Shown here piece after piece: positions 17,264 to 60,285 of a stretch of DNA of 64,000 bases. The position numbers were made by a program, and so were the translations under genes. The stretch covers positions 229,057 through 293,056 of the forward strand of contig JBAZUU010000001.1 of NCBI GenBank assembly GCA_041661275.1, written 5' to 3'. The notes under the pieces were generated by a model. It saw nothing but the letters and a program-made list of their open reading frames with translations. It had not been told where the DNA came from and made no database searches. Numbering within the stretch: position 1 is the first letter of the stretch; each line of letters begins with the position of its first letter. The stretch comes from Parcubacteria group bacterium (GTDB taxonomy: Bacteria > Patescibacteriota > Minisyncoccia > Moranbacterales > UBA2206).

Positions 17264-20200
17264 ATGGAAAAAGATATCAAAAATACTAGCGTTATTCAAT
17301 CGCGGGAAATTACCGAAGAAATTTCGCAATCCTATTTGGATTATGCTATGAGCGTCATTGTCGCTCGCGCTTTGCCTGATGTTCGCGATGGCTTGAAGCC
17401 GGTTCACCGAAGAATCCTCTATTCCATGTGGAACACTGGTCTTCGCGCCAATGCTAAATTCCGAAAATCAGCCACAGTGGTCGGAGAAGTCTTGGGAAAA
17501 TATCACCCGCATGGCGACGTGGCGGTCTATGATTCTATGGTGAGAATGGCCCAGGATTTTTCTCTACGCTATCCATTGGTGCGCGGTCAGGGAAACTTCG
17601 GTTGTTTTACAAAAGACACTAGGGTCAAACTGGCTGATGGGCGGAATTTAAGCTTCGAAGATCTTATAAAAGAAGATAAACAGGGCAAAAAAAATTACAC
17701 CTATACGGTTAATTCTTTGGGTTTAATTTCAATAGCTCAAATAAAAAAACCTCGCCTTACCATTGAAAATGCAGAAGTCATTAGAGTTGTGCTGGACAAT
17801 GGGCAGAAAATTAAATGTACTCCTAATCATTTGTTTATGCTCAAAAACGGCCAATATGAAGAAGCGCAAAATCTGAAAAAAGAGGATTCTCTAATGCCGT
17901 TATATGAAAAGTTATCGGAAAAAACTGATAGGCTAAATCGTGAAGGATATACTCTAGTATACCAGCCCAAAAAAGACGAATGGGTTCCCGTGCACCACCT
18001 GGCTGATAATTTCAATTTGACTGTTGGAAAATACATAAAAAGTGTCGGTAGGGTAAGGCATCATTCGGATTTCAATAAACTTAATAACAGTCCTGAAAAT
18101 ATTGTCAGAATGAATTGGAAAGAGCATTGGAGCGTTCATTATGAAAACGCTTCCTTGTTGCATAAAAGCGCGAATTATCGCCAAAAAATTAAAGAAGGTC
18201 GGGATAAATATTGGTCAGACTCTCAAGTTCGAGAGCAATATGCAAAGCGTTTATCTGAAAGGAATGTGATAAATTGGGAAAATCCGGAATATCGGGAAAA
18301 GATGCGTCTTTTTTTGAGCGAGATGAATAAGCAGTATATGAAAGATCATCCGGAAAAACGCCAGGAAATTAGTGAGCGCGCTACAAAAACTTTGAAAAGG
18401 CTTTGGAAAAATCCCGAGTATCGCGCGATAATGCATGAAAGAATAATCAAGGGAAACAAAAATCACAAAACCAATAAAACCGGCAGGTTAAAGTTCCTCA
18501 ATGTTTGTAAGGAAATTATTGCAAAAAATCTTGAGATAAATGAAAAAAATTATTCTCAATTCAGAAAAAAAGTTTATGCCTATGGAGCGGCAACGCTATG
18601 GGAGACAGGATTGAATAAATATTTTCAAAATAGTCCTGACCTGATTCGACAGGAAATAAGCAAAAATCACAGAATCGTTAGGATCGAAAAGATAAAAGAA
18701 AAAGAAGATGTGTTTGACCTTACGATTGATAATTCTCACAACTTTTGTTTGGGTGCCGGAGTATTTGTTCATAACTCGATGGATGGTGATAGCGCGGCAG
18801 CCTATCGTTATACAGAAGCCAAGCTTTCTGTCATTGCTGAAGAAATGCTTATTGACATCGAAAAGAATACTGTCGATTTTGTGCCGAACTTTGACGGACA
18901 GCACAAAGAACCAACTGTTCTTCCCGCCGGACTCCCTCAGCTTCTTCTCAACGGTTCTATGGGAATCGCTGTCGGGATGGCGACAAACATCCCTCCGCAT
19001 AATTTAGGCGAACTTATCGACGGCATCAATTGTCTTATTGAAAATCCGGACGCGGAAATTTCTGATCTCGCGGAATTTGTGAAAGGTCCGGACTTCCCTA
19101 CTGGTGGTATAATTTACAACAAAAAAGACATCCTGGAAGCCTACAAGACCGGACGGGGAAAAATTCTCACGCGAGCCAAGGCGGAAATCGTGGAAACAAA
19201 AGCCGGTGCGTTTCAAATCATTGTGAGCGAAATGACTTATGCCACTAACAAAGCGACAATGATTGAGCGAATGGCTGATCTGGTGCATGAAGGAAAAATT
19301 GTCGGTATTAGGGACATTCGAGATGAATCAGACAAGGAAGGAGTGCGGCTGGTCATTGAGCTCAAAAAAGACGCTTATCCGCAAAAAGTTTTGAATAAAC
19401 TATATTCCCTCACCGATCTCCAAAAAAACTTTGGAGTGAATATGTTGGCGCTGGTCGGTGGCATTGAACCGCAGATCTTGAACCTGAAAGATATTTTGGA
19501 AGAATATATCGAACACCGAAAAATTGTCATCACTCGCCGGACTAAATATGATCTGGAAAAAGCACGAGACCGGGCGCATATTTTAGAGGGCTTGAAAATC
19601 GCTCTTGATCATATCGACGCGGTGATAGAAACAATCAAAAAATCAGAAACCAAGGAAATTGCTCATGTCAATTTGATGAAAAAATTCAAATTATCCGACA
19701 GACAGGCTACAGCAATTCTCGAAATGAGATTGCAAACTTTGGCGGGGCTAGAGCAAAAGAAAATCGAAGACGAGCTAGCCGAAAAACTGAAACTGATTGC
19801 GGAGCTCGAAGCTATTCTAAAGAGTGAAAAGAAAATTTTAGGAATAGTCAAAGATGAGTTGGCGCGCGTCAAAGAAAAATATGGCGATGAGAGAAAAACC
19901 AAGATCGTGAAAGGCGGCATCACCGAATTCAAGCAAGAAGACCTTGTGCCGAACGATGAAGCGATAATCACTATTTCCAAAGAAGGATATATTAAAAGAA
20001 TGGATCCGGCCGTATACAAAGTTCAGCGTCGGGGCGGAAAAGGAGTGATTGGCGCCACCACCAAAGAAGGCGATGAAATTTCTGAAATGCTGGGCGTTAT
20101 GGCGCACGACAATCTTCTCTTTTTCACCAACACCGGAAAAGTTTTCCAGACGAAAGCTTATGAAATTCCCGCTTCCACCCGGATCGCCAAAGGCCAGTCC

Positions 20201-20884
20201 ATTGTCAATTTCCTTTCACTTTCCAGTGAAGAAAAAATAACCGCGTTGGTGGCGTCTGGAAAAGATGACGCCTATAAATATATGTTTATGGCCACGGAAA
20301 ACGGCACAGTGAAAAAAACATCGATCGAAGAATTTGAAAATGTCAGGCGTTCCGGACTCATCGCGATAAAGCTGGAAAAAGGTGACGCGCTTTCCTGGGC
20401 GGAAGCGACATCGGGATCTGACGAGGTAGTCATCACTACGCAAAAAGGACAAGCCATCCGCTTTCGCGAATCCGATGTCCGTCCGATGGGTCGTGCTGCA
20501 GCGGGAGTGCGTGGCATCAAACTAAAAACCGAAGACAAAGTGGTCGGGATGGATGTCGTTTTTAAAGGACAAAAAGGCAATCAGCTTTTGGTCATCGGAG
20601 AAAATGGATATGGAAAAAGATCAGATCTCAAATCATACAAAGTCCAGAAGCGCGGTGGGTCAGGAATCAAGACTGCTTCCATCACAGCCAAGACTGGAAA
20701 ACTGATCGGAGCGCAAGTAGTCAATCTTGATGATATTGAACAAGATCTTATTATGACAAGTGAGAAAGGACAGATCATCCGCATTGAGCTAAAAACCGTC
20801 TCCGTCCTCGGCCGCGCGACGCAAGGTGTCAGGGTTATGCGTCCACAACCCGGCGACAAAGTTTCGGCGATAACGGTTTTGTAA
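17264..20884 (+). CDS. gyrA: DNA gyrase subunit A, interrupted by an intein
   Basis: [23 protein letters not shown] and [12 protein letters not shown], then the intein, then [17 protein letters not shown] and the GyrA beta-pinwheel repeats. The extein totals about 815 aa. Confidence 0.95.
17603..18775 (+). mobile_element. GyrA intein (about 391 aa) at the canonical site between GNFG and SMDGD
   Basis: It begins with Cys ([13 protein letters not shown]...), ends ...[12 protein letters not shown] and is followed by Ser. The central domain carries tandem NPEYR(E/A) repeats. I see no LAGLIDADG motif. Confidence 0.85.
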
Positions 20885-42679: not shown

Positions 42680-42752
42680 GGATCCCTAGCTCAATGGCTA
42701 GAGCACTTCATTTACACTGAAGGGGTTATAGGTTCGAGTCCTATGGGATCCA
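42680..42752 (+). tRNA. tRNA-Val(TAC)
   Basis: GGATCCC-TA-GCTCAATGGCTAGAGC-A-CTTCA-TTTACAC-TGAAG...GGGATCC-A. Confidence 0.85.
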
Positions 42753-42775
42753 CACACATTGGAATTATATAGTTT

Positions 42776-42846: not shown

Positions 42847-43152
42847 GCCAGGTTAGCTCAGCGGTAGAGCGAAGGACTGAATTTCGGTCCGTCCGGCAGT
42901 AATGCCGGAATGAAAATTGGGTGAATTCGAGGAAACCTAAGTTGCCGATGAGGCAAAATGGCAATCTCGAGCCAAGTCTTGATGGGCATAGTTTTCAAGA
43001 AAGGTGTAGAGACTAGCGAGTGAGTCCCAACAATAATCTCGCATTAGCGCCCAATATCCTGATGAAGGATAATGAAATAGTCCAATCCTTGGGGAAACTC
43101 AAGAAGGAAAAGGAAAATCCTTGCGTGCCCAGTTCGACTCTGGGACCTGGCA
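42847..43152 (+). tRNA. tRNA-Phe(GAA) split by a group I intron in the anticodon loop
   Basis: Exon 1 is GCCAGGT-TA-GCTCAGCGGTAGAGC-G-AAGGA-CT (42847-42878). Exon 2 is GAAAA-TCCTT-GCGTG-CCCAG-TTCGACT-CTGGG-ACCTGGC-A (43113-43152). Spliced loop is CTGAAAA. Confidence 0.75.
42879..43112 (+). ncRNA. group I intron (234 nt), no ORF
   Basis: The internal guide GGTCC pairs with exon 1 GGACU through a U:G at the splice site, and the intron ends in G. Its core resembles the cyanobacterial tRNA-Leu intron as I recall it (GGAAACCTAA; CTCGAGCCAAGTC; GGTGTAGAGACTAGCG; TAGTCCAATCC). Confidence 0.75.
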
Positions 43153-43209: not shown

Positions 43210-43281
43210 GCGGGTGTAGTATAGTGGTTATTACGTCAGGTTGCCAATCTGAATACGGCGGTTCGATTCCGCTCACCCGCT
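43210..43281 (+). tRNA. tRNA-Gly(GCC)
   Basis: GCGGGTG...TCAGG-TTGCCAA-TCTGA...GGCGGTTCGATTCCGCT-CACCCGC-T. Confidence 0.85.
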
Positions 43282-43291
43282 CAAAATCACG

Positions 43292-54550: not shown

Positions 54551-55282
54551 ATGAAGAAAAAAAATATAGCGATTTTCATTATTATGTTTCTAGGACTGAT
54601 TGCCGTATCAAACATAATAACAGCACAGGCCGCTACAACCACAACTGATACCGCATTAGAACAATTAACTGGGAAAACATCAACCACTTCTTCCTCAAGC
54701 GATTCAACAATTTCCTTTTCTTTTCTTAATCCTATTGGCGCCACTACTGTTGCCGCGGTTCTTAAGAGCTTATTGACCAACCTGCAATCAGTAGTCATTA
54801 CTATTGCCATAATCTTTATAGTCATCGGAGGTCTTATGTATATGATGTCCGGCGGGAGCGAAAAAACAATCACGCGCGCCAAGTCATGTGTTGCCGGGGC
54901 AGTGATAGGATTGGCGATAGTGCTGGCGGCACCTATATTCCTAAATGAAGTTATAGCTATTTTTGGCGGCTCCAGCGGAATTGGTTCTACCGGCAGTAGC
55001 GTCAGGCTCAAGACTGTTGTGGAAAAAATTCTGGATTTGTTGTTGTCTGTTTTAGGAATCATTGCTATAATCTCTCTAGTTGTCGGAGGCGGAATGTATC
55101 TCACTTCCTATGGCGATGAAGACAGAATAAAGACGGCTAAAAAAATTGTTACTTACGCCATAATTGGAATAGTGATTTCTCTTTCAGCATTGGTTATTGT
55201 AAGTGAAGTAGGAAGTATTTTAGGCGGAACCACTTCGAGCAGTACCTCATCCACTTCAATATCGAGCTTGTTGGGATTTTAA
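54551..55282 (+). CDS. VirB2/TrbC-like pilin-family protein, internally duplicated (two pilin units)
   Basis: Signal peptide, then two repeats of TM helix, G(G)xMY..(S/T)GxE...(R/K)AK loop, and a second TM helix. Confidence 0.55.
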   Translation: MKKKNIAIFIIMFLGLIAVSNIITAQAATTTTDTALEQLTGKTSTTSSSSDSTISFSFLNPIGATTVAAVLKSLLTNLQSVVITIAIIFIVIGGLMYMMSGGSEKTITRAKSCVAGAVIGLAIVLAAPIFLNEVIAIFGGSSGIGSTGSSVRLKTVVEKILDLLLSVLGIIAIISLVVGGGMYLTSYGDEDRIKTAKKIVTYAIIGIVISLSALVIVSEVGSILGGTTSSSTSSTSISSLLGF

Positions 55283-55298
55283 ATAGAAAGTTGAGGTA

Positions 55299-55456
55299 AC
55301 CCCAGCACCAATTCCGATAAAAATTTACATATTATAAAGATTAGTGCTCGGATTCGCCTTCGGCTTAGAATTAAACAAAAACCAAAGTCTCTCGAGTGAA
55401 TTGGTGCGGGGTTCTCAATTTTGTAACCACTCGCTTCGCTCGCGGACAAAATTGGA
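55299..55456. repeat. conserved structured leader upstream of pilin paralog 2
   Basis: IR CCCCAGCACCAATTC/GAATTGGTGCGGGG plus a CAATTTTG...CAAAATTG hairpin. The region is duplicated at 55929-56082. Confidence 0.65.
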
Positions 55457-55478
55457 AAAATAGAAAGGCAGGTGTTAT

Positions 55479-55829
55479 ATGAAAAAAATAAAAATGTTGT
55501 TCTATTCTATGAATGTCGCGTTGCTGACTGTTCCGGCGTTGGCTTCGGCTCAATTGACCAAACCGACAGGAACCGGACTTCCTGAAAGCACCCTTTCTAC
55601 CATTGTTCAGAACGTAATGTATTGGCTTTTGTGGCTGGTGGGAATCGTCGGAGTTATCGGATTTGCTATTGCCGGACTTCTCTATCTCACCGCAACGGGA
55701 GATGAAACCAGATTAAACAGAGCTAAAAGCGCTATGCTTTATTCCATAATCGGAATTATCGTGGCTTTGGCCGGACTTATTGCCATCAACTTCGCCTATG
55801 GCCTTTTGGGAGGAGCGAAAAAATTCTAA
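55479..55829 (+). CDS. VirB2/TrbC-like pilin-family protein
   Basis: Signal peptide (..ALASA), GLP motif, TM helix, TGDETRLNRAK loop, TM helix. Confidence 0.6.
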   Translation: MKKIKMLFYSMNVALLTVPALASAQLTKPTGTGLPESTLSTIVQNVMYWLLWLVGIVGVIGFAIAGLLYLTATGDETRLNRAKSAMLYSIIGIIVALAGLIAINFAYGLLGGAKKF

Positions 55830-55928
55830 GTGATCATTTTGAATTTTTCAGATAAAAACAGTCTGCGGGTTATCCACAGGCTGTTTTGTTTTGTGAAGTG
55901 TGGTATAATAATGCTGCGGTGAAATAAT

Positions 55929-56082
55929 CCCAGCACCAATTCCGACAAGGATTAACAAAGTGTAAAGATTAGCGCTCGGATTCGCCTACGGCTTTAATTT
56001 AAAATAAATATTAAAATAAGTTTGCGAATTGGTGCGGGATGCTCAATTTTGTAGCTACTCGCAAGGCTCGCAGACAAAATTG
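55929..56082. repeat. conserved structured leader upstream of pilin paralog 3 (second copy)
   Basis: Same blocks and IRs as 55299-55456, at roughly 85% identity by eye. Confidence 0.65.
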
Positions 56083-56096
56083 GCAAAATACAAAAA

Positions 56097-56465
56097 ATGA
56101 AAAAGAAAATATCTTTTCTCGCCGCAGTTGTTGTTTCTCTTTTATTTTCGGTCGTGGATACCGGAAATGTTTTTGCAGCTTGGAGCGCTGACACCTTAAC
56201 CACATTCGGTCTACCAAGCGGAACTATAACATCAATCGTGGGATATATCTTGTTGTGGCTTCTATATATGCTGGGTATTGTGGGTGTGATCGGATTTGTC
56301 ATTTCGGGTCTTATGTATCTTATTTCAACAGGGGATCAAACTATGATCGATCGCGCCAAAAAAGGGATGACCTATTCAATAGTCGGAATCGTTGTAGGTT
56401 TGGTCGGTCTGGTTATCATTAGGGCGGTTGATACCATACTAAGAGGAGCTTCATCAACTTTTTAA
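56097..56465 (+). CDS. VirB2/TrbC-like pilin-family protein
   Basis: Signal peptide, GLP motif, TM helix, TGDQTMIDRAK loop, TM helix. Confidence 0.6.
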   Translation: MKKKISFLAAVVVSLLFSVVDTGNVFAAWSADTLTTFGLPSGTITSIVGYILLWLLYMLGIVGVIGFVISGLMYLISTGDQTMIDRAKKGMTYSIVGIVVGLVGLVIIRAVDTILRGASSTF

Positions 56466-56468
56466 GGA

Positions 56469-56837
56469 ATGGAAATGAAAAAAGTAAAAAAATATCTATT
56501 ATTGGTATTCTCAATAGCTTTCGTGTCTTTTCATTGTGAAACAGTTATGGCTGCCTATTCTCTTCCCACCAATACCGGCTTGCCAACTTCCAGTTCAGGA
56601 ATAAAAGGAATTCTTGCCAATCTGCTTAGCTGGCTCCTGTCGATTTTTGGCATAATCGCTATCATCGGGTTTGTTGTTTCCGGTATTCAATATTTTCTGG
56701 CTACGGGAGATGAGAAAATGATGCAGACCGCCAAGAGAAACGCTCTATATTCAATCCTTGGTGTTATTGTGGCGCTTTCCGCTTATGTTGTCATAAAGGC
56801 AATCGATACCGCGCTTAGAGGATCTTCCGGTTTTTAG
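56469..56837 (+). CDS. VirB2/TrbC-like pilin-family protein
   Basis: Same architecture (TGDEKMMQTAK loop). It starts 4 nt after paralog 3. Confidence 0.6.
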   Translation: MEMKKVKKYLLLVFSIAFVSFHCETVMAAYSLPTNTGLPTSSSGIKGILANLLSWLLSIFGIIAIIGFVVSGIQYFLATGDEKMMQTAKRNALYSILGVIVALSAYVVIKAIDTALRGSSGF

Positions 56838-56904
56838 TTTTTGGAAATTTAAAAAAGGCGTCCCGTATTGAACGGTTCGCCTTTTTTGATTTGCCGCAAT
56901 CCTT

Positions 56905-58107
56905 TTATTGCGGCGTCAATATTATTTTTTGGCAGAGAGAAATAATCTCCACCTCTTCTTGATCCGACTTCAGGACAAACCCGAAGTCGTTGGTAGCTAT
57001 TTGTTTCTTAACTTCCGCGTCCAGAAAGGCGCAGATACGGTGGCTGCTAGTATACCTTGCTGCCTCCAGGGGAATAATTTTTCCGTAAACCGTCCCTTTT
57101 TCAGTCTCTCTCTTGTCTAGCACCAGAGAAATCGGTTCTTTTTTTTGGTTCCCTTTTTTAGGATCGGATCCGGGATTTTTTTCCGGCAATTTCTCTGAAA
57201 ACTTTCCTACCGGAATAAATCCGACATATTTTCCCGGCTGATCCGTCACTGGATCGGGCAGGGAAAATTTTTCGAAGATGACGCCGTTGACTTCAACAGA
57301 TTCATCCATGGCGACAACCTCGGTCGATTTTGTATATTTCAAAGTGAGGGGTATACAACCGGAAGTTGTGCAAGAATACACGGTTTCTCCGGCCGGAATC
57401 TGTCGTGTGCGCTGGGATTGATTGAGCTCACGCGATTTCAGATTCAGTGAGCTAAACAATCCATTCGCGAAACCGGTTTTTCCGGTACCGGGAATCAGGC
57501 CTGGAGGAATAATGAGATATACAGAATACAAGAAGCATCCAATCGCGTAGTAATAGATGACATCTTTGTATAAAGTAAATCCCTTTTCCCATTTCCATGC
57601 TGCAAGCTTTATAATCAACAGGCTTGAAAGCATGAGTATGATAGCACGACGGTCAGTGCCGAATGGAAGGGTGCCCAGAAACAAGGATGCTATGGACGCC
57701 CAAAGCAATACGGTGCCAACCGTGTCTATGTATTTGTCCAGAAAATCTTTCACCGCTTTCTTTTTTTCTAATTCAACTTCTATTTCTATTGACTCATCTC
57801 CAGTTTTATCCGGAGTTTTTTTAAAGAGTCTGGAGAATGCTTCCAGGCCAAGCACGGACAGGACTATTCCTTCTCTCGATGCCACGAATATGACAAGAAG
57901 AGAAATGATGAGGCCGATAATCAGATTTATACCTTTCAGGCCGACTAGGTTTAGAGCATACTCCGCGAGAATAAGAGGAATGATGAGCAATATTGTTCTC
58001 ATCAAAAACCTGCTATGAATTTTTTTCCCTCTTTCCTTCAGTGATCCTAGTGTGTCATTGGGATCCAGCCCGAAAATTTTTGCCAGTATTTCAAGAATAT
58101 CGTTCAT
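56905..58107 (-). CDS. polytopic membrane protein with C-terminal extracytoplasmic domain
   Basis: 400 aa with at least 6 TM helices in the N-terminal half. It is convergent with the pilin cluster. Confidence 0.5.
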   Translation of the reverse strand: MNDILEILAKIFGLDPNDTLGSLKERGKKIHSRFLMRTILLIIPLILAEYALNLVGLKGINLIIGLIISLLVIFVASREGIVLSVLGLEAFSRLFKKTPDKTGDESIEIEVELEKKKAVKDFLDKYIDTVGTVLLWASIASLFLGTLPFGTDRRAIILMLSSLLIIKLAAWKWEKGFTLYKDVIYYYAIGCFLYSVYLIIPPGLIPGTGKTGFANGLFSSLNLKSRELNQSQRTRQIPAGETVYSCTTSGCIPLTLKYTKSTEVVAMDESVEVNGVIFEKFSLPDPVTDQPGKYVGFIPVGKFSEKLPEKNPGSDPKKGNQKKEPISLVLDKRETEKGTVYGKIIPLEAARYTSSHRICAFLDAEVKKQIATNDFGFVLKSDQEEVEIISLCQKIILTPQ

Positions 58108-58110
58108 GGG

Positions 58111-58896
58111 TTATTTTCCTCCTACAGTGGCGATAGTATAGAGAAGAAAGGTCATAATTGATGCATATCCAAGGATAAACAGAACTCGTTTTGTGGGTGA
58201 GTTGGACAAACGGAAATCAAACACATTAGCCCAGTAGCTCATTCCTGGATTTCTTCCAGCGATTTTTTTGTTCATACCATCCAAGCCGGAAATGACATCG
58301 TTTTTGTTTTCCGATGCCCACTTCTTGAACTTTTCGAGTTTTCTTTCCCAATCGCCCTTGAGAACCCCAGTAGAATCAAGAAGATTGAGTTTCTGGTGAT
58401 TAGTCAGCTTGGAAAAAGCGATAAGAAATCTTACGGCCGGATTAGTTCTGATTTCGGTGGTTTTCTCTTTTACTTCCGGAGCACTTTTCGCGCGGGGTAT
58501 TTCATGACGTTCCTTGGTTACCCTGCAACTTTCCTCATGATAAAGAATTCCCAGGGAAACCCTAAAACGTTCATTCTGTGTTCCATCCAGGTGTTTTTTC
58601 TGGAAAGCAACAATTTTGGCCAGAGCTCGCGGGTCTTTCTTTTCCAGCTTTTCCATAAGCCTTCCGCAAAGATCTAAATAAATAGCCGTGTCGGAAAGAT
58701 TAAGAAAACCTCCGAATTTCAGTTCCGGACCAGCCGTTTCAGCTGTAGTTTCTCCTGTTCCCGCGATTCCCGAAGCGACCTTGTTCCCCAAAGCAGAAGA
58801 AATGTATTTCTTCATCTGGTTCAGGCTGAAAAGTTCCGTTACAGTATCACTGAAGAGACTTATTATGGTTTCTTTTGCTGTGTCGAGCATGCTCAT
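58111..58896 (-). CDS. hypothetical protein with C-terminal TM anchor
   Basis: 261 aa, 4 nt upstream of the ORF at 56905-58107. Confidence 0.45.
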   Translation of the reverse strand: MSMLDTAKETIISLFSDTVTELFSLNQMKKYISSALGNKVASGIAGTGETTAETAGPELKFGGFLNLSDTAIYLDLCGRLMEKLEKKDPRALAKIVAFQKKHLDGTQNERFRVSLGILYHEESCRVTKERHEIPRAKSAPEVKEKTTEIRTNPAVRFLIAFSKLTNHQKLNLLDSTGVLKGDWERKLEKFKKWASENKNDVISGLDGMNKKIAGRNPGMSYWANVFDFRLSNSPTKRVLFILGYASIMTFLLYTIATVGGK

Positions 58897-59091: not shown

Positions 59092-60285
59092 ATGAAAAAA
59101 AGACTACTTTATTATGAAATTATACCTTACATAAGCCATAAAAACGCCATTGTTATTACCGGAATGCGTCAGGTGGGAAAAACGACATTAATGAGACAGA
59201 TTTTCGAAGATATTGACCAAAATAAGCCAAAAATATGGTTTGACTTTGATAATCCTTTAGACCAAAGGACTTTCGAAGATTTGGAGTATCGGAATATTTT
59301 CGAAAGACTGAAAATTGCCAGTGGGGCAGAGAGAGACGAGCAAATATATGTTTTTATTGATGAAATTCAGAATTTTCCCGAAATAACCAAAATAATAAAA
59401 TTTCTTATCGACAATTTTGGGGTAAAGTTTATTGTTACCGGATCATCAAATTTTTATCTCAAAAATCTGTTTCCGGAGTCGCTTTCCGGAAGAAAGTTTC
59501 TCTATGAACTTTCTCCGCTTAGCTTTCGGGAGTGCTTATATTTTAGGGATAAATTATCCATGGAGCAAGCAATGAAGGTACGGCTCGAGGAAGGACTGGC
59601 TGAAAAAAATATTACCGAATTTCAAAAGCTGGATCAGGAGTATGAGGAATATTTACGTTTCGGAGGATTTCCGGAAGTAGTTCTGACTTCAGACATCGAA
59701 ACAAAACGGCTAGTGCTAAAAAATATATTTACGTCATTTTTTGAAAAAGATCTGAAAATAATCTCAGGCTTTAAGGACGTTCGGGAACTACGTGATTTTA
59801 TCCTCCTGCTTGTTCCAAGGGTGGGATCCATGCTGGATGTTTCAAAATTAGCGGCTGAATTGGGGATATTAAGGCCGAAAGCCTACAGCTATTTGGAATT
59901 TTTGCGGGGAATATTTTTTATCCGGCTTCTTCCAAAATTTACTAAAAGTATCGACCGGTCAGTTGCCGGAGGAAAAAAAATATATTTTACCGATAACGGT
60001 ATCCTGACTACCGTTGGTAACGTTAATGATGCTCAACTTTTCGAAAATGCGGTCGTGAATCAGCTGGCTCTCTACGGCGACCTGAGTTTCTACAATAAAA
60101 GAAACAAGGAAGAGATTGATATAATTCTCAAAAAAGAAAAAGCTTTTGAAGTGAAGCTCGGAGGAAGCAAAAAATATCTCGAAAAAGCGGAAAGGATATC
60201 TGCAAAAATTGATATTAAACAGGTTTTTGTCGTGAGTCGAAAGTATAGCAAGGAGGCGGGTATGGTTTTTCCAATGTTTTTATAG
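59092..60285 (+). CDS. AAA+ ATPase with DUF4143-type C-terminus
   Basis: P-loop GMRQVGKTTL and length/architecture typical of this family. Confidence 0.75.
   Translation: MKKRLLYYEIIPYISHKNAIVITGMRQVGKTTLMRQIFEDIDQNKPKIWFDFDNPLDQRTFEDLEYRNIFERLKIASGAERDEQIYVFIDEIQNFPEITKIIKFLIDNFGVKFIVTGSSNFYLKNLFPESLSGRKFLYELSPLSFRECLYFRDKLSMEQAMKVRLEEGLAEKNITEFQKLDQEYEEYLRFGGFPEVVLTSDIETKRLVLKNIFTSFFEKDLKIISGFKDVRELRDFILLLVPRVGSMLDVSKLAAELGILRPKAYSYLEFLRGIFFIRLLPKFTKSIDRSVAGGKKIYFTDNGILTTVGNVNDAQLFENAVVNQLALYGDLSFYNKRNKEEIDIILKKEKAFEVKLGGSKKYLEKAERISAKIDIKQVFVVSRKYSKEAGMVFPMFL

Follow-up and report, generated by a model that had tools for sequence, protein, structure and literature searches.

What do two conserved leaders do within a tandem array of pilin genes, and do they belong to the pilins at all? 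In the 64-kb stretch of DNA analyzed here (the window; three-digit L-numbers such as L006 denote the contigs or loci compared with it), four open reading frames (ORFs) on the + strand, at 54551-55282, 55479-55829, 56097-56465 and 56469-56837, encode VirB2/TrbC-like pilins. A first-pass annotation of this DNA had placed leaders of about 160 nt, with inverted repeats, before genes 2 and 3, and had proposed for them a regulatory or processing function at the RNA level rather than simple hitch-hiking with the genes. Both leaders are found. We propose, with about an even chance of being right, that each is an independent copy of a generic two-helix cis element, found throughout the lineage, that sits in the pilin mRNAs and acts post-transcriptionally on an otherwise standard pilin array. 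The leader structures appear to be selected, but not for a pilin-specific role.

Leader 2, at 55299..55459 on the + strand, is intercistronic between genes 1 and 2. It consists of a long-range stem, P1 (arms 55300-55314 and 55398-55411), with an inner GCC-UUC-GGC hairpin and an A-rich linker, and a hairpin, P2 (55412-55457); a Shine-Dalgarno (SD)-like motif, AAAGGCAGGTG, lies downstream of the leader and separate from it. In leader 3, at 55928..56087 (+), the P1 arms occupy 55929-55942 and 56026-56038, and P2 occupies 56040-56085; a 9-nt A-rich tract (56088-56096) separates the leader from the ATG of gene 3, ahead of which there is no SD motif. In both leaders P1 is a stem of 13-15 bp enclosing about 83 nt, with P2 directly after it. 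The same layout is visible in the repeats of the locus: ungapped direct repeats pair 55292-55380 with 55920-56008 (81% identity) and 55398-55466 with 56026-56094 (86%), and inverted repeats pair 55301-55314 with 55398-55411 and 55930-55942 with 56026-56038. Patterns derived from the leaders match at just two places in the window, where none would be expected by chance, and covariance model R1 scores leader 2 at 77.5 bits and leader 3 at 76.3 bits, against at most 16.3 bits for the rest of the window.

The region between gene 2 and leader 3 contains two further signals, both read directly from the sequence. A hairpin followed by a T-run, 3' of gene 2 at 55854..55893 (+), can be read as an intrinsic terminator; a simple terminator scan listed no + strand terminator there, and the position of the hairpin is kept, with compensatory changes in its stem, in L006, L002, L003, L127 and L129. 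An extended -10 box, TGGTATAAT, follows at 55901..55909 (+) and is kept in L006, L127, L128 (as TGGTATGAT) and L223. It is likely to be the promoter of a transcript carrying leader 3 and genes 3 and 4, and leader 3 starts about 19 nt past it. With the hairpin and T-run on one side and the -10 box on the other, leader 3 would therefore be the 5' untranslated region (UTR) of a separate transcript.

The earlier claim that the leaders are at least as conserved as the coding regions holds. Leaders 2 and 3 are 79% identical overall, compared with 57-63% for the coding sequences of genes 2 and 3, which agree at just 35% of third codon positions. The same contrast is seen between genomes: the window leader and its orthologue in L006 are 75-81% identical, compared with 54.5% at the third codon positions of gene 3, so that the leaders do not diverge faster than synonymous sites, the outcome named beforehand as a refutation of the claim. 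Since the leaders are better kept than third codon positions, they are constrained.

The two leaders belong to a much larger family with a shared architecture, in which P1, a long-range stem of 13-18 bp with a variable interior, is followed immediately by P2. Read from its base, P2 opens with a 12-bp stem interrupted by a single bulged U; a 2-nt bulge, a further stem of 4 bp and a UC/UC internal loop follow, and the hairpin closes with a 2-bp tip whose loop has 3-4 nt. A second class of P2 has a simpler 5-bp tip. Covariation in P2 is very strong. In an alignment of 29 sequences (A2), 96.7% of cells are paired and all eight variable pairs are doubly compensated, while slid controls give 30-47% pairing. 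An independent GTDB set of 149 distinct hits, which was aligned with the model and is hence fitted to it, shows pairing in 97.6% of cells and compensation at 17 of 18 pairs, among them positions of a proximal stem that is otherwise conserved. At its foot, P2 has two base pairs that vary in concert with the sequence after the stem (UGCU/GGCA, CGCU/GGCG, UACU/GGUA and UUCU/GGAA). Unguided RNAalifold also recovers P1 and P2, both from eight ribosomal-protein leaders and from a 17-member subfamily that includes the two window leaders, and in both subfamilies it recovers the bulged U. Each subfamily has its own P1 interior, which can be as short as about 14 nt or exceed 160 nt. Searches of Rfam 15 with the leaders and one member of the ribosomal-protein type gave no match, at gathering thresholds or at E<=10, and the literature searched contained nothing specific describing such a leader, or such an insertion module in RNase P RNA, in the candidate phyla radiation (CPR). 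The family is thus not found in Rfam or in the searched literature.

Its distribution is broad and its copy number low. An exact-pattern scan for P2 (CAATTTTGTA, 10-35 nt of any sequence, ACAAAATTGG) found more than 120 metagenome loci among the matches listed, and a slightly longer pattern found more than 119 loci in genomes of GTDB species, again among the matches listed. The named GTDB loci among these are nearly all Patescibacteria and span many classes, with labels that include Moranbacteria, Paceibacterota, Yanofsky-, Nomura-, Zambryski-, Kaiser-, Wolfe-, Falkow-, Komeili- and Sungbacteria, as well as Spechtbacterales and many metagenome-assembled genomes (MAGs) labelled Saccharibacteria. 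The window holds two copies in its 64 kb, and one MAG has at least five loci. An exact interior motif, AGATTAGNGCTCGGATTCGCC, had no match in GTDB genomes.

Many copies are placed with single-nucleotide precision relative to a start codon. Among the GTDB matches listed, 31 copies end in exact register with one, either with TTG within the last four bases of the stem and GCN following, or with ATG one nucleotide past the stem; ten more lie within 30 nt of a start. The metagenome set has the same registration. In each set about a quarter of the listed copies are in exact register on the sense strand, a share that probably rises to about half among copies outside RNase P RNA. By Pfam, the downstream genes in GTDB genomes encode ribosomal proteins L27 (in four genomes), L32, L35, L11, L13 and S11, SecY, SecDF, FtsZ, MraZ, MraW, GroES, GAPDH, PilM, a PilB-type ATPase, an FtsE-type ABC protein, ParB and others, and L15 and S3 are also among the genes at whose start codons copies end. 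In ribosomal-protein operons several same-strand copies occupy whole intercistronic gaps, as ahead of L24, S8 and L6 in L038, and L215 has four copies in 4 kb. Some copies begin 1-4 nt past the upstream stop codon, and others follow a -10 box.

A second setting is RNase P RNA, which contains about 29 of the GTDB copies among the matches listed. Here the element forms a pseudo-symmetric module, in which a mirror-image hairpin, P0, precedes P1 and P2. One to three modules occur per gene, at three sites: the tip of P18, P15-17, and just past P4. RNase P RNAs with modules lie at L011 682-1264, L041 167-614, L114 348-924 (where the Rfam call covers 520-924), L110 369-1156 and L065 418-905; the modules swell these genes to as much as 788 nt and upset the Rfam alignment. 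They fit the report that RNase P RNAs of the CPR carry large helix extensions and need manual refolding (PMC8172020).

A third setting is the end of other stable RNAs. In six cases a reverse-oriented hairpin begins exactly at the encoded CCA of a tRNA, a tRNA-like fragment or a transfer-messenger RNA (tmRNA); these are L125 127-250, L086 8293-8692, L032 8716-8860, where a fragment resembling the 3' half of a tRNA lies in front of the hairpin, L152, L159 and L171. Two further copies lie antisense, upstream of 16S genes. We also noted a stand-alone P1-P2 copy at L025 2560-2760 (identical in L051), with an intrinsic terminator directly after it and no ORF start adjacent, which may be a small RNA gene. 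A recurrent flank, CAGCAACUAUCCGACAC / CGCAACCACAUAACGC, is found just past class-i hairpins in L091, L119, L134, L172, L182, L217 and L249; it had no Rfam match in the two loci for which the search was run (L091 and L119) and may be another structured RNA that hosts the module.

Closer to the pilin locus, the subfamily to which the window leaders belong is marked by P1 arms of the form ...CCCAGCACCAAUUC / GAAUUGGUGCGGG..., an inner GCC-NNN-GGC hairpin and an A-rich linker. Elsewhere it occurs mostly on Moranbacteria-like contigs, ahead of genes for MraY, L15, SecY, an FtsX-like protein, PilM, RmlA, a glycosyltransferase and MFS proteins. Across genomes its members have a median pairwise identity of 69% over about 160 nt, and the closest pairs are copies before the same gene in different genomes (85% for L15 and 84% for MFS). 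Leader 2 shares 80% identity with the copy in L089, which precedes an unrelated gene, and about 78% with leader 3. For leader 3, identity is 77% to its counterpart in L006 and likewise 77% to the leader of a HypC-like gene. The subtypes also differ, with GGGGUUCU...UUGGAAAA in leader 2 and GGGAUGCU...UUGGCA in leader 3. By these sequence features the two leaders belong to different subtypes and are not recent duplicates of one another.

The surrounding gene order, infB - DUF4446 - methyltransferase - SBP - four pilins - two ORFs - nusA, is shared with other genomes, and this synteny allows sites with and without the element to be compared. Among the pilin loci compared, the element precedes pilin genes only in the window and in L006, which has an orthologous copy of leader 3; in L127 and L128 the same -10 box is followed by a plain A-rich UTR. 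Presence thus differs among close syntenic loci, and the element has been gained or lost between relatives. Comparison of the filled sites (window and L006) with the empty ones (L127 and L128) reveals no target-site duplication; the two flanks together are as long as the empty site. Long target-site duplications, which we had considered, are unsupported once the empty sites are compared, and a 10-nt repeat beside leader 2, AAATAGAAAG, is not adjacent to the ends of the element. Other structures were seen at related sites: L130 (130-320) and L131 (220-370) carry a different element of about 190 nt in the 5' UTR of the gene 3 orthologue, with terminal inverted repeats of 18-19 bp (CAGGACTTACGCGTTTG...), and L002, L003 and L129 have other hairpins just before the ribosome-binding site of gene 2.

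How might such an element act? We infer that RNA rather than DNA is the functional form, and each mechanistic step, whether cleavage, stabilization or control of initiation, is put forward on the same footing. The genomic setting is suggestive. In the window, an SD-like motif was seen upstream of only about 10 of 45 long ORFs, and many of the 45 have a TATAAT-like box 6-20 nt before the ATG; the scarcity of SD motifs together with boxes so close to the start suggests that short-leader or leaderless initiation is the norm. An element that fills the space from a promoter or an upstream stop codon to the next start codon, as it does across the family, would leave the next cistron with a 5' region that is defined, protected or processed, and would present its start in organisms where Shine-Dalgarno sequences are mostly missing. 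At the pilin locus, leader 2 would uncouple gene 2 from gene 1, and leader 3 would head the transcript of genes 3 and 4. We considered whether the 3' strand of P2 could serve as an alternative SD sequence for a changed 16S tail; the 16S 3' end in L106 (391-445) lacks the CCUCC anti-SD (...GGAAGCUGUUCGUGGAAUAAUUCAAUUUGAAAUCG), that in L178 is normal (GGAUCACCUCCU), and these are too few data, so that this candidate was set aside.

A bolder proposal, which we offer tentatively and think will probably prove wrong, is that P1-P2 is a punctuation element of RNA throughout the Patescibacteria, cut by a host nuclease at the foot of the bulged hairpin. Cutting would release near-leaderless mRNAs from operons, trim the 3' ends of tRNA and tmRNA at CCA, and cut the module out of RNase P RNA. 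A module that is removed from the RNA could therefore spread to any transcribed site, and the proposal would explain the registration to start codons and CCA, function in both orientations, and strand-symmetric pairing.

Several observations weigh against a post-transcriptional element. The paired end of P2 lies 9 and 19 nt short of the start codons in the window copies, so that sequestration of the start does not apply to them, and the fold z-scores of the leaders are modest (-1.15, and -2.83 for leader 3). Copies lie antisense to tRNA, tmRNA and 16S genes, and inverted doublets occur in RNase P RNA. The element is absent from seven other pilin loci and from the syntenic L002, L003 and the closer L127-L131 among the loci compared, and in the closest of these loci unrelated palindromes fill the same UTRs. 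The sequence of the proximal stem is near-invariant and carries an extrahelical base. Finally, G-U pairs do not outnumber A-C mismatches: the counts are 20 and 29 for P1 in mRNA contexts, 26 and 34 for P1 elsewhere, and 36 and 50 for P2, the last owing in part to one conserved A-C position. The lack of a G-U excess over A-C is unusual for helices selected as RNA and favors the alternative that the element acts as DNA.

That alternative is the strongest of the rivals, and we regard it as possible, if less probable than a post-transcriptional element. It treats the family as a palindromic DNA element, selfish or neutral, of the REP/BIME/REPIN or MITE kind or a PATE-like derivative of IS200/IS605, whose hairpins matter in single-stranded DNA and which persists only where it is tolerated, namely in 5' UTRs, intercistronic gaps, RNase P helix tips and tRNA trailers; the pilin leaders would be two insertions without host function. 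The variable presence of the element among close relatives, with other palindromes at the same sites, is what such an element would produce, as are inverted doublets at three different positions of RNase P RNA, both orientations relative to stable RNA genes, strand-symmetric counts of G-U and A-C, and ends from which tRNAs take their CCA and ORFs a TTG start. The hairpins bound by Y1 transposases carry an extrahelical base, and the near-invariant proximal stem of P2 with its own extrahelical base resembles them. Against this stand the lack of a target-site duplication at the pilin sites and a copy number of only two in 64 kb. The P2 pattern was also found in none of 2.9 million viral contigs, a collection in which we estimate that a 22-base pattern would have a few chance matches. 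Nor would an element that is merely tolerated be expected to place about a quarter of its listed copies in each set in exact sense-strand register with a start codon, to be retained before the same gene in different genomes with compensatory changes in P1, or to keep its paralogues about 69% identical over 160 nt across genomes. The two explanations are not exclusive, as a DNA element may have acquired a role as RNA.

By comparison, a riboregulator or processing signal that is specific to pilins and co-evolved with the pilin paralogues, as the first-pass annotation implied, is very improbable. Two copies in one pilin operon, better conserved than the coding sequence, are what gave rise to the idea. 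Yet the element stands before pilins only in the window and L006, with seven other pilin loci lacking it, and the same subfamily precedes MraY, L15, SecY, FtsX-like, PilM, RmlA and MFS genes. Family-wide it precedes dozens of unrelated housekeeping genes and enters RNase P RNA, and the nearest relative of leader 2, in L089, lies before an unrelated gene. What survives of that earlier claim is its rejection of hitch-hiking, whereas its implied restriction to pilins does not stand, and a function at the RNA level is what we too would infer. Hitch-hiking itself, in which a leader was duplicated along with its gene and has yet to diverge, draws on the genes being tandem paralogues but is scarcely credible when third codon positions are saturated (35% identity) while the leaders retain 79%, when relatives with the same four-gene array lack the leaders, and when leaders 2 and 3 are of different subtypes.

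Other readings of the leader sequence were considered and rejected. A promoter within P2 would have a spacing of 14 or 20 nt between the -35-like TTGTAA and the -10-like CAAAAT, and the TAnnnT hexamers of a supposed internal promoter in the A-rich linker are expected by chance. Small ORFs in the leaders, on either strand, are disfavored because substitutions are not 3-periodic, and the stems explain the same stretches. The AUGGCU left flank was read as part of a group I intron or as a relic start codon, but the rules for exon and intron ends are not obeyed, and the upstream AUG has no preceding SD motif. A similarity to rrn boxA (UGCUC...) falls in sequence that is paired in the leaders, and the copies near 16S genes are antisense.

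The pilin genes themselves are real but ordinary. Gene 1 (54551..55282, +, 243 aa) encodes a signal peptide and two tandem VirB2-like units, and genes 2 (55479..55829, +, 116 aa), 3 (56097..56465, +, 122 aa) and 4 (56469..56837, +, 122 aa) encode single units. All four pass PF18895 (T4SS_pilin; cut-off 26.6), with 61.1, 42.4, 27.1 and 45.8 bits in order, gene 3 barely and gene 1 in two stretches, which bears out their earlier assignment as VirB2/TrbC-like paralogs. For PF04956 (TrbC; cut-off 27.9), gene 1 passes with 39.2 bits and gene 4 falls just under with 27.5; NCBIfam gave only sub-threshold similarity, to a mycoplasma pilin-like conjugal transfer protein of integrative and conjugative elements (ICE). 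The two units of gene 1 are 45% identical over 71 aa (E=2e-14), in agreement with the internal tandem duplication noted before. By inspection of the translations, AxA-type signal-peptide ends are followed by two hydrophobic helices with a short polar loop. Of the motifs said to be common to all four proteins, the TGD(E/Q)...(R/T)AK loop is readable in all five units, whereas GLP is present in genes 2-4 and not in gene 1. The gene 3 protein is identical to WCV59_01265 from an NCBI MAG (Parcubacteria group bacterium), with Moranbacteria as its nearest named relatives, and a look-up of the gene 2 protein returned no exact-sequence record.

Tandem VirB2 arrays of 2-11 divergent genes are already known in Patescibacteria, where about 40% of virB2-like pilin genes lie away from virB4 (PMC12102498). 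The window array is of this published kind: its products are small, with a signal peptide and two hydrophobic helices, its paralogues are tandem with low mutual identity (40-46%), and like many such arrays it has no virB4 nearby among the window ORFs scanned. There is no essential difference, save that the first gene is a fused double unit and that two syntenic membrane ORFs without a known family adjoin the array. Because such arrays are already catalogued, this one adds little.

As described earlier, no ATPase or coupling-protein gene of a type IV secretion system (T4SS) was found in the window, nor was VirB4, VirD4 or VirB6, in a Pfam scan of 18 window ORFs that include the ten longest, the window being part of a contig of about 300 kb; the scanned ORFs are housekeeping genes (UvrD, GyrA with an intein, FtsH, S1, the CCA-adding enzyme and the like). 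The two membrane-protein genes reported as convergent to the pilins are present on the - strand at 56905-58107 (400 aa) and 58111-58896 (261 aa), and both carry hydrophobic segments. They have no family match in Pfam or NCBIfam and recur beside the pilin array, with counterparts in L001, L002, L006 and L129. Between the convergent gene sets, an inverted repeat, I2 (56843..56895, unstranded), with 24-nt arms that are 79% complementary, is, to judge by its sequence, probably a bidirectional terminator. Between these ORFs and nusA lies an AAA_14/DUF4143 ATPase gene (59092-60285, +), whose position is taken in L002 by an AbiEii-family gene, making this a variable spot within otherwise conserved synteny. 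Farther away, Rfam detects a group I intron (87 bits) at 42869-43104 (+), flanked by tRNA-Val (42680-42753) and tRNA-Gly (43210-43282), which probably splits a tRNA gene detected by neither ARAGORN nor Rfam. The GyrA ORF (17264-20884, +; 1206 aa) contains its intein at residues 123-504 (Pfam Intein_splicing).

The interest of the locus therefore lies in the element, which in many classes of Patescibacteria precedes operons for ribosomal proteins, division, secretion and pili and is also found within RNase P RNA. If it acts as RNA, it bears on how mRNA 5' ends and translation starts are defined in reduced, largely SD-poor organisms, and it could explain why some RNase P RNAs look "diverged" and have to be refolded by hand (PMC8172020). 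If it is mobile DNA, a single such family would be conserved over an entire superphylum, which is rare. Either way, a covariance model would improve the annotation of genes and RNAs in these genomes.

The element shares features with several known classes. Like riboswitch and T-box leaders, it places one conserved fold before many unrelated operons, and in part of the family, the window copies excepted, its 3' helix extends over the start codon. Unlike them, it is also found within RNase P RNA and in antisense orientation to RNA genes, and because the P1 interior, anywhere from about 14 nt to over 160 nt long, is unconserved family-wide, no common aptamer is evident. It resembles the intervening sequences that RNase III excises from 23S rRNA, and the RNase III sites of T7 early mRNA, in having hairpins at helix tips or between cistrons and a sporadic distribution, an analogy of position only; it differs from the intervening sequences in that its host is RNase P RNA or mRNA, its stem sequence is conserved, and excision is hypothetical. 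P1 could pass for the terminal inverted repeats of a MITE, except that the target-site duplication of that class is missing. With REP/BIME/REPIN, ERIC and the Correia elements of Neisseria it shares several traits: all form hairpins, sometimes as inverted doublets (here in RNase P RNA), are gained and lost among relatives, and lie in UTRs or intercistronic gaps, where those elements can alter mRNA processing or stability. Those elements are species-specific and high-copy; the element described here, which lacks a target-site duplication, is low-copy in each genome, keeps the same stem across many classes of Patescibacteria, resides within RNase P RNA, and is placed in register with start codons and with CCA ends.

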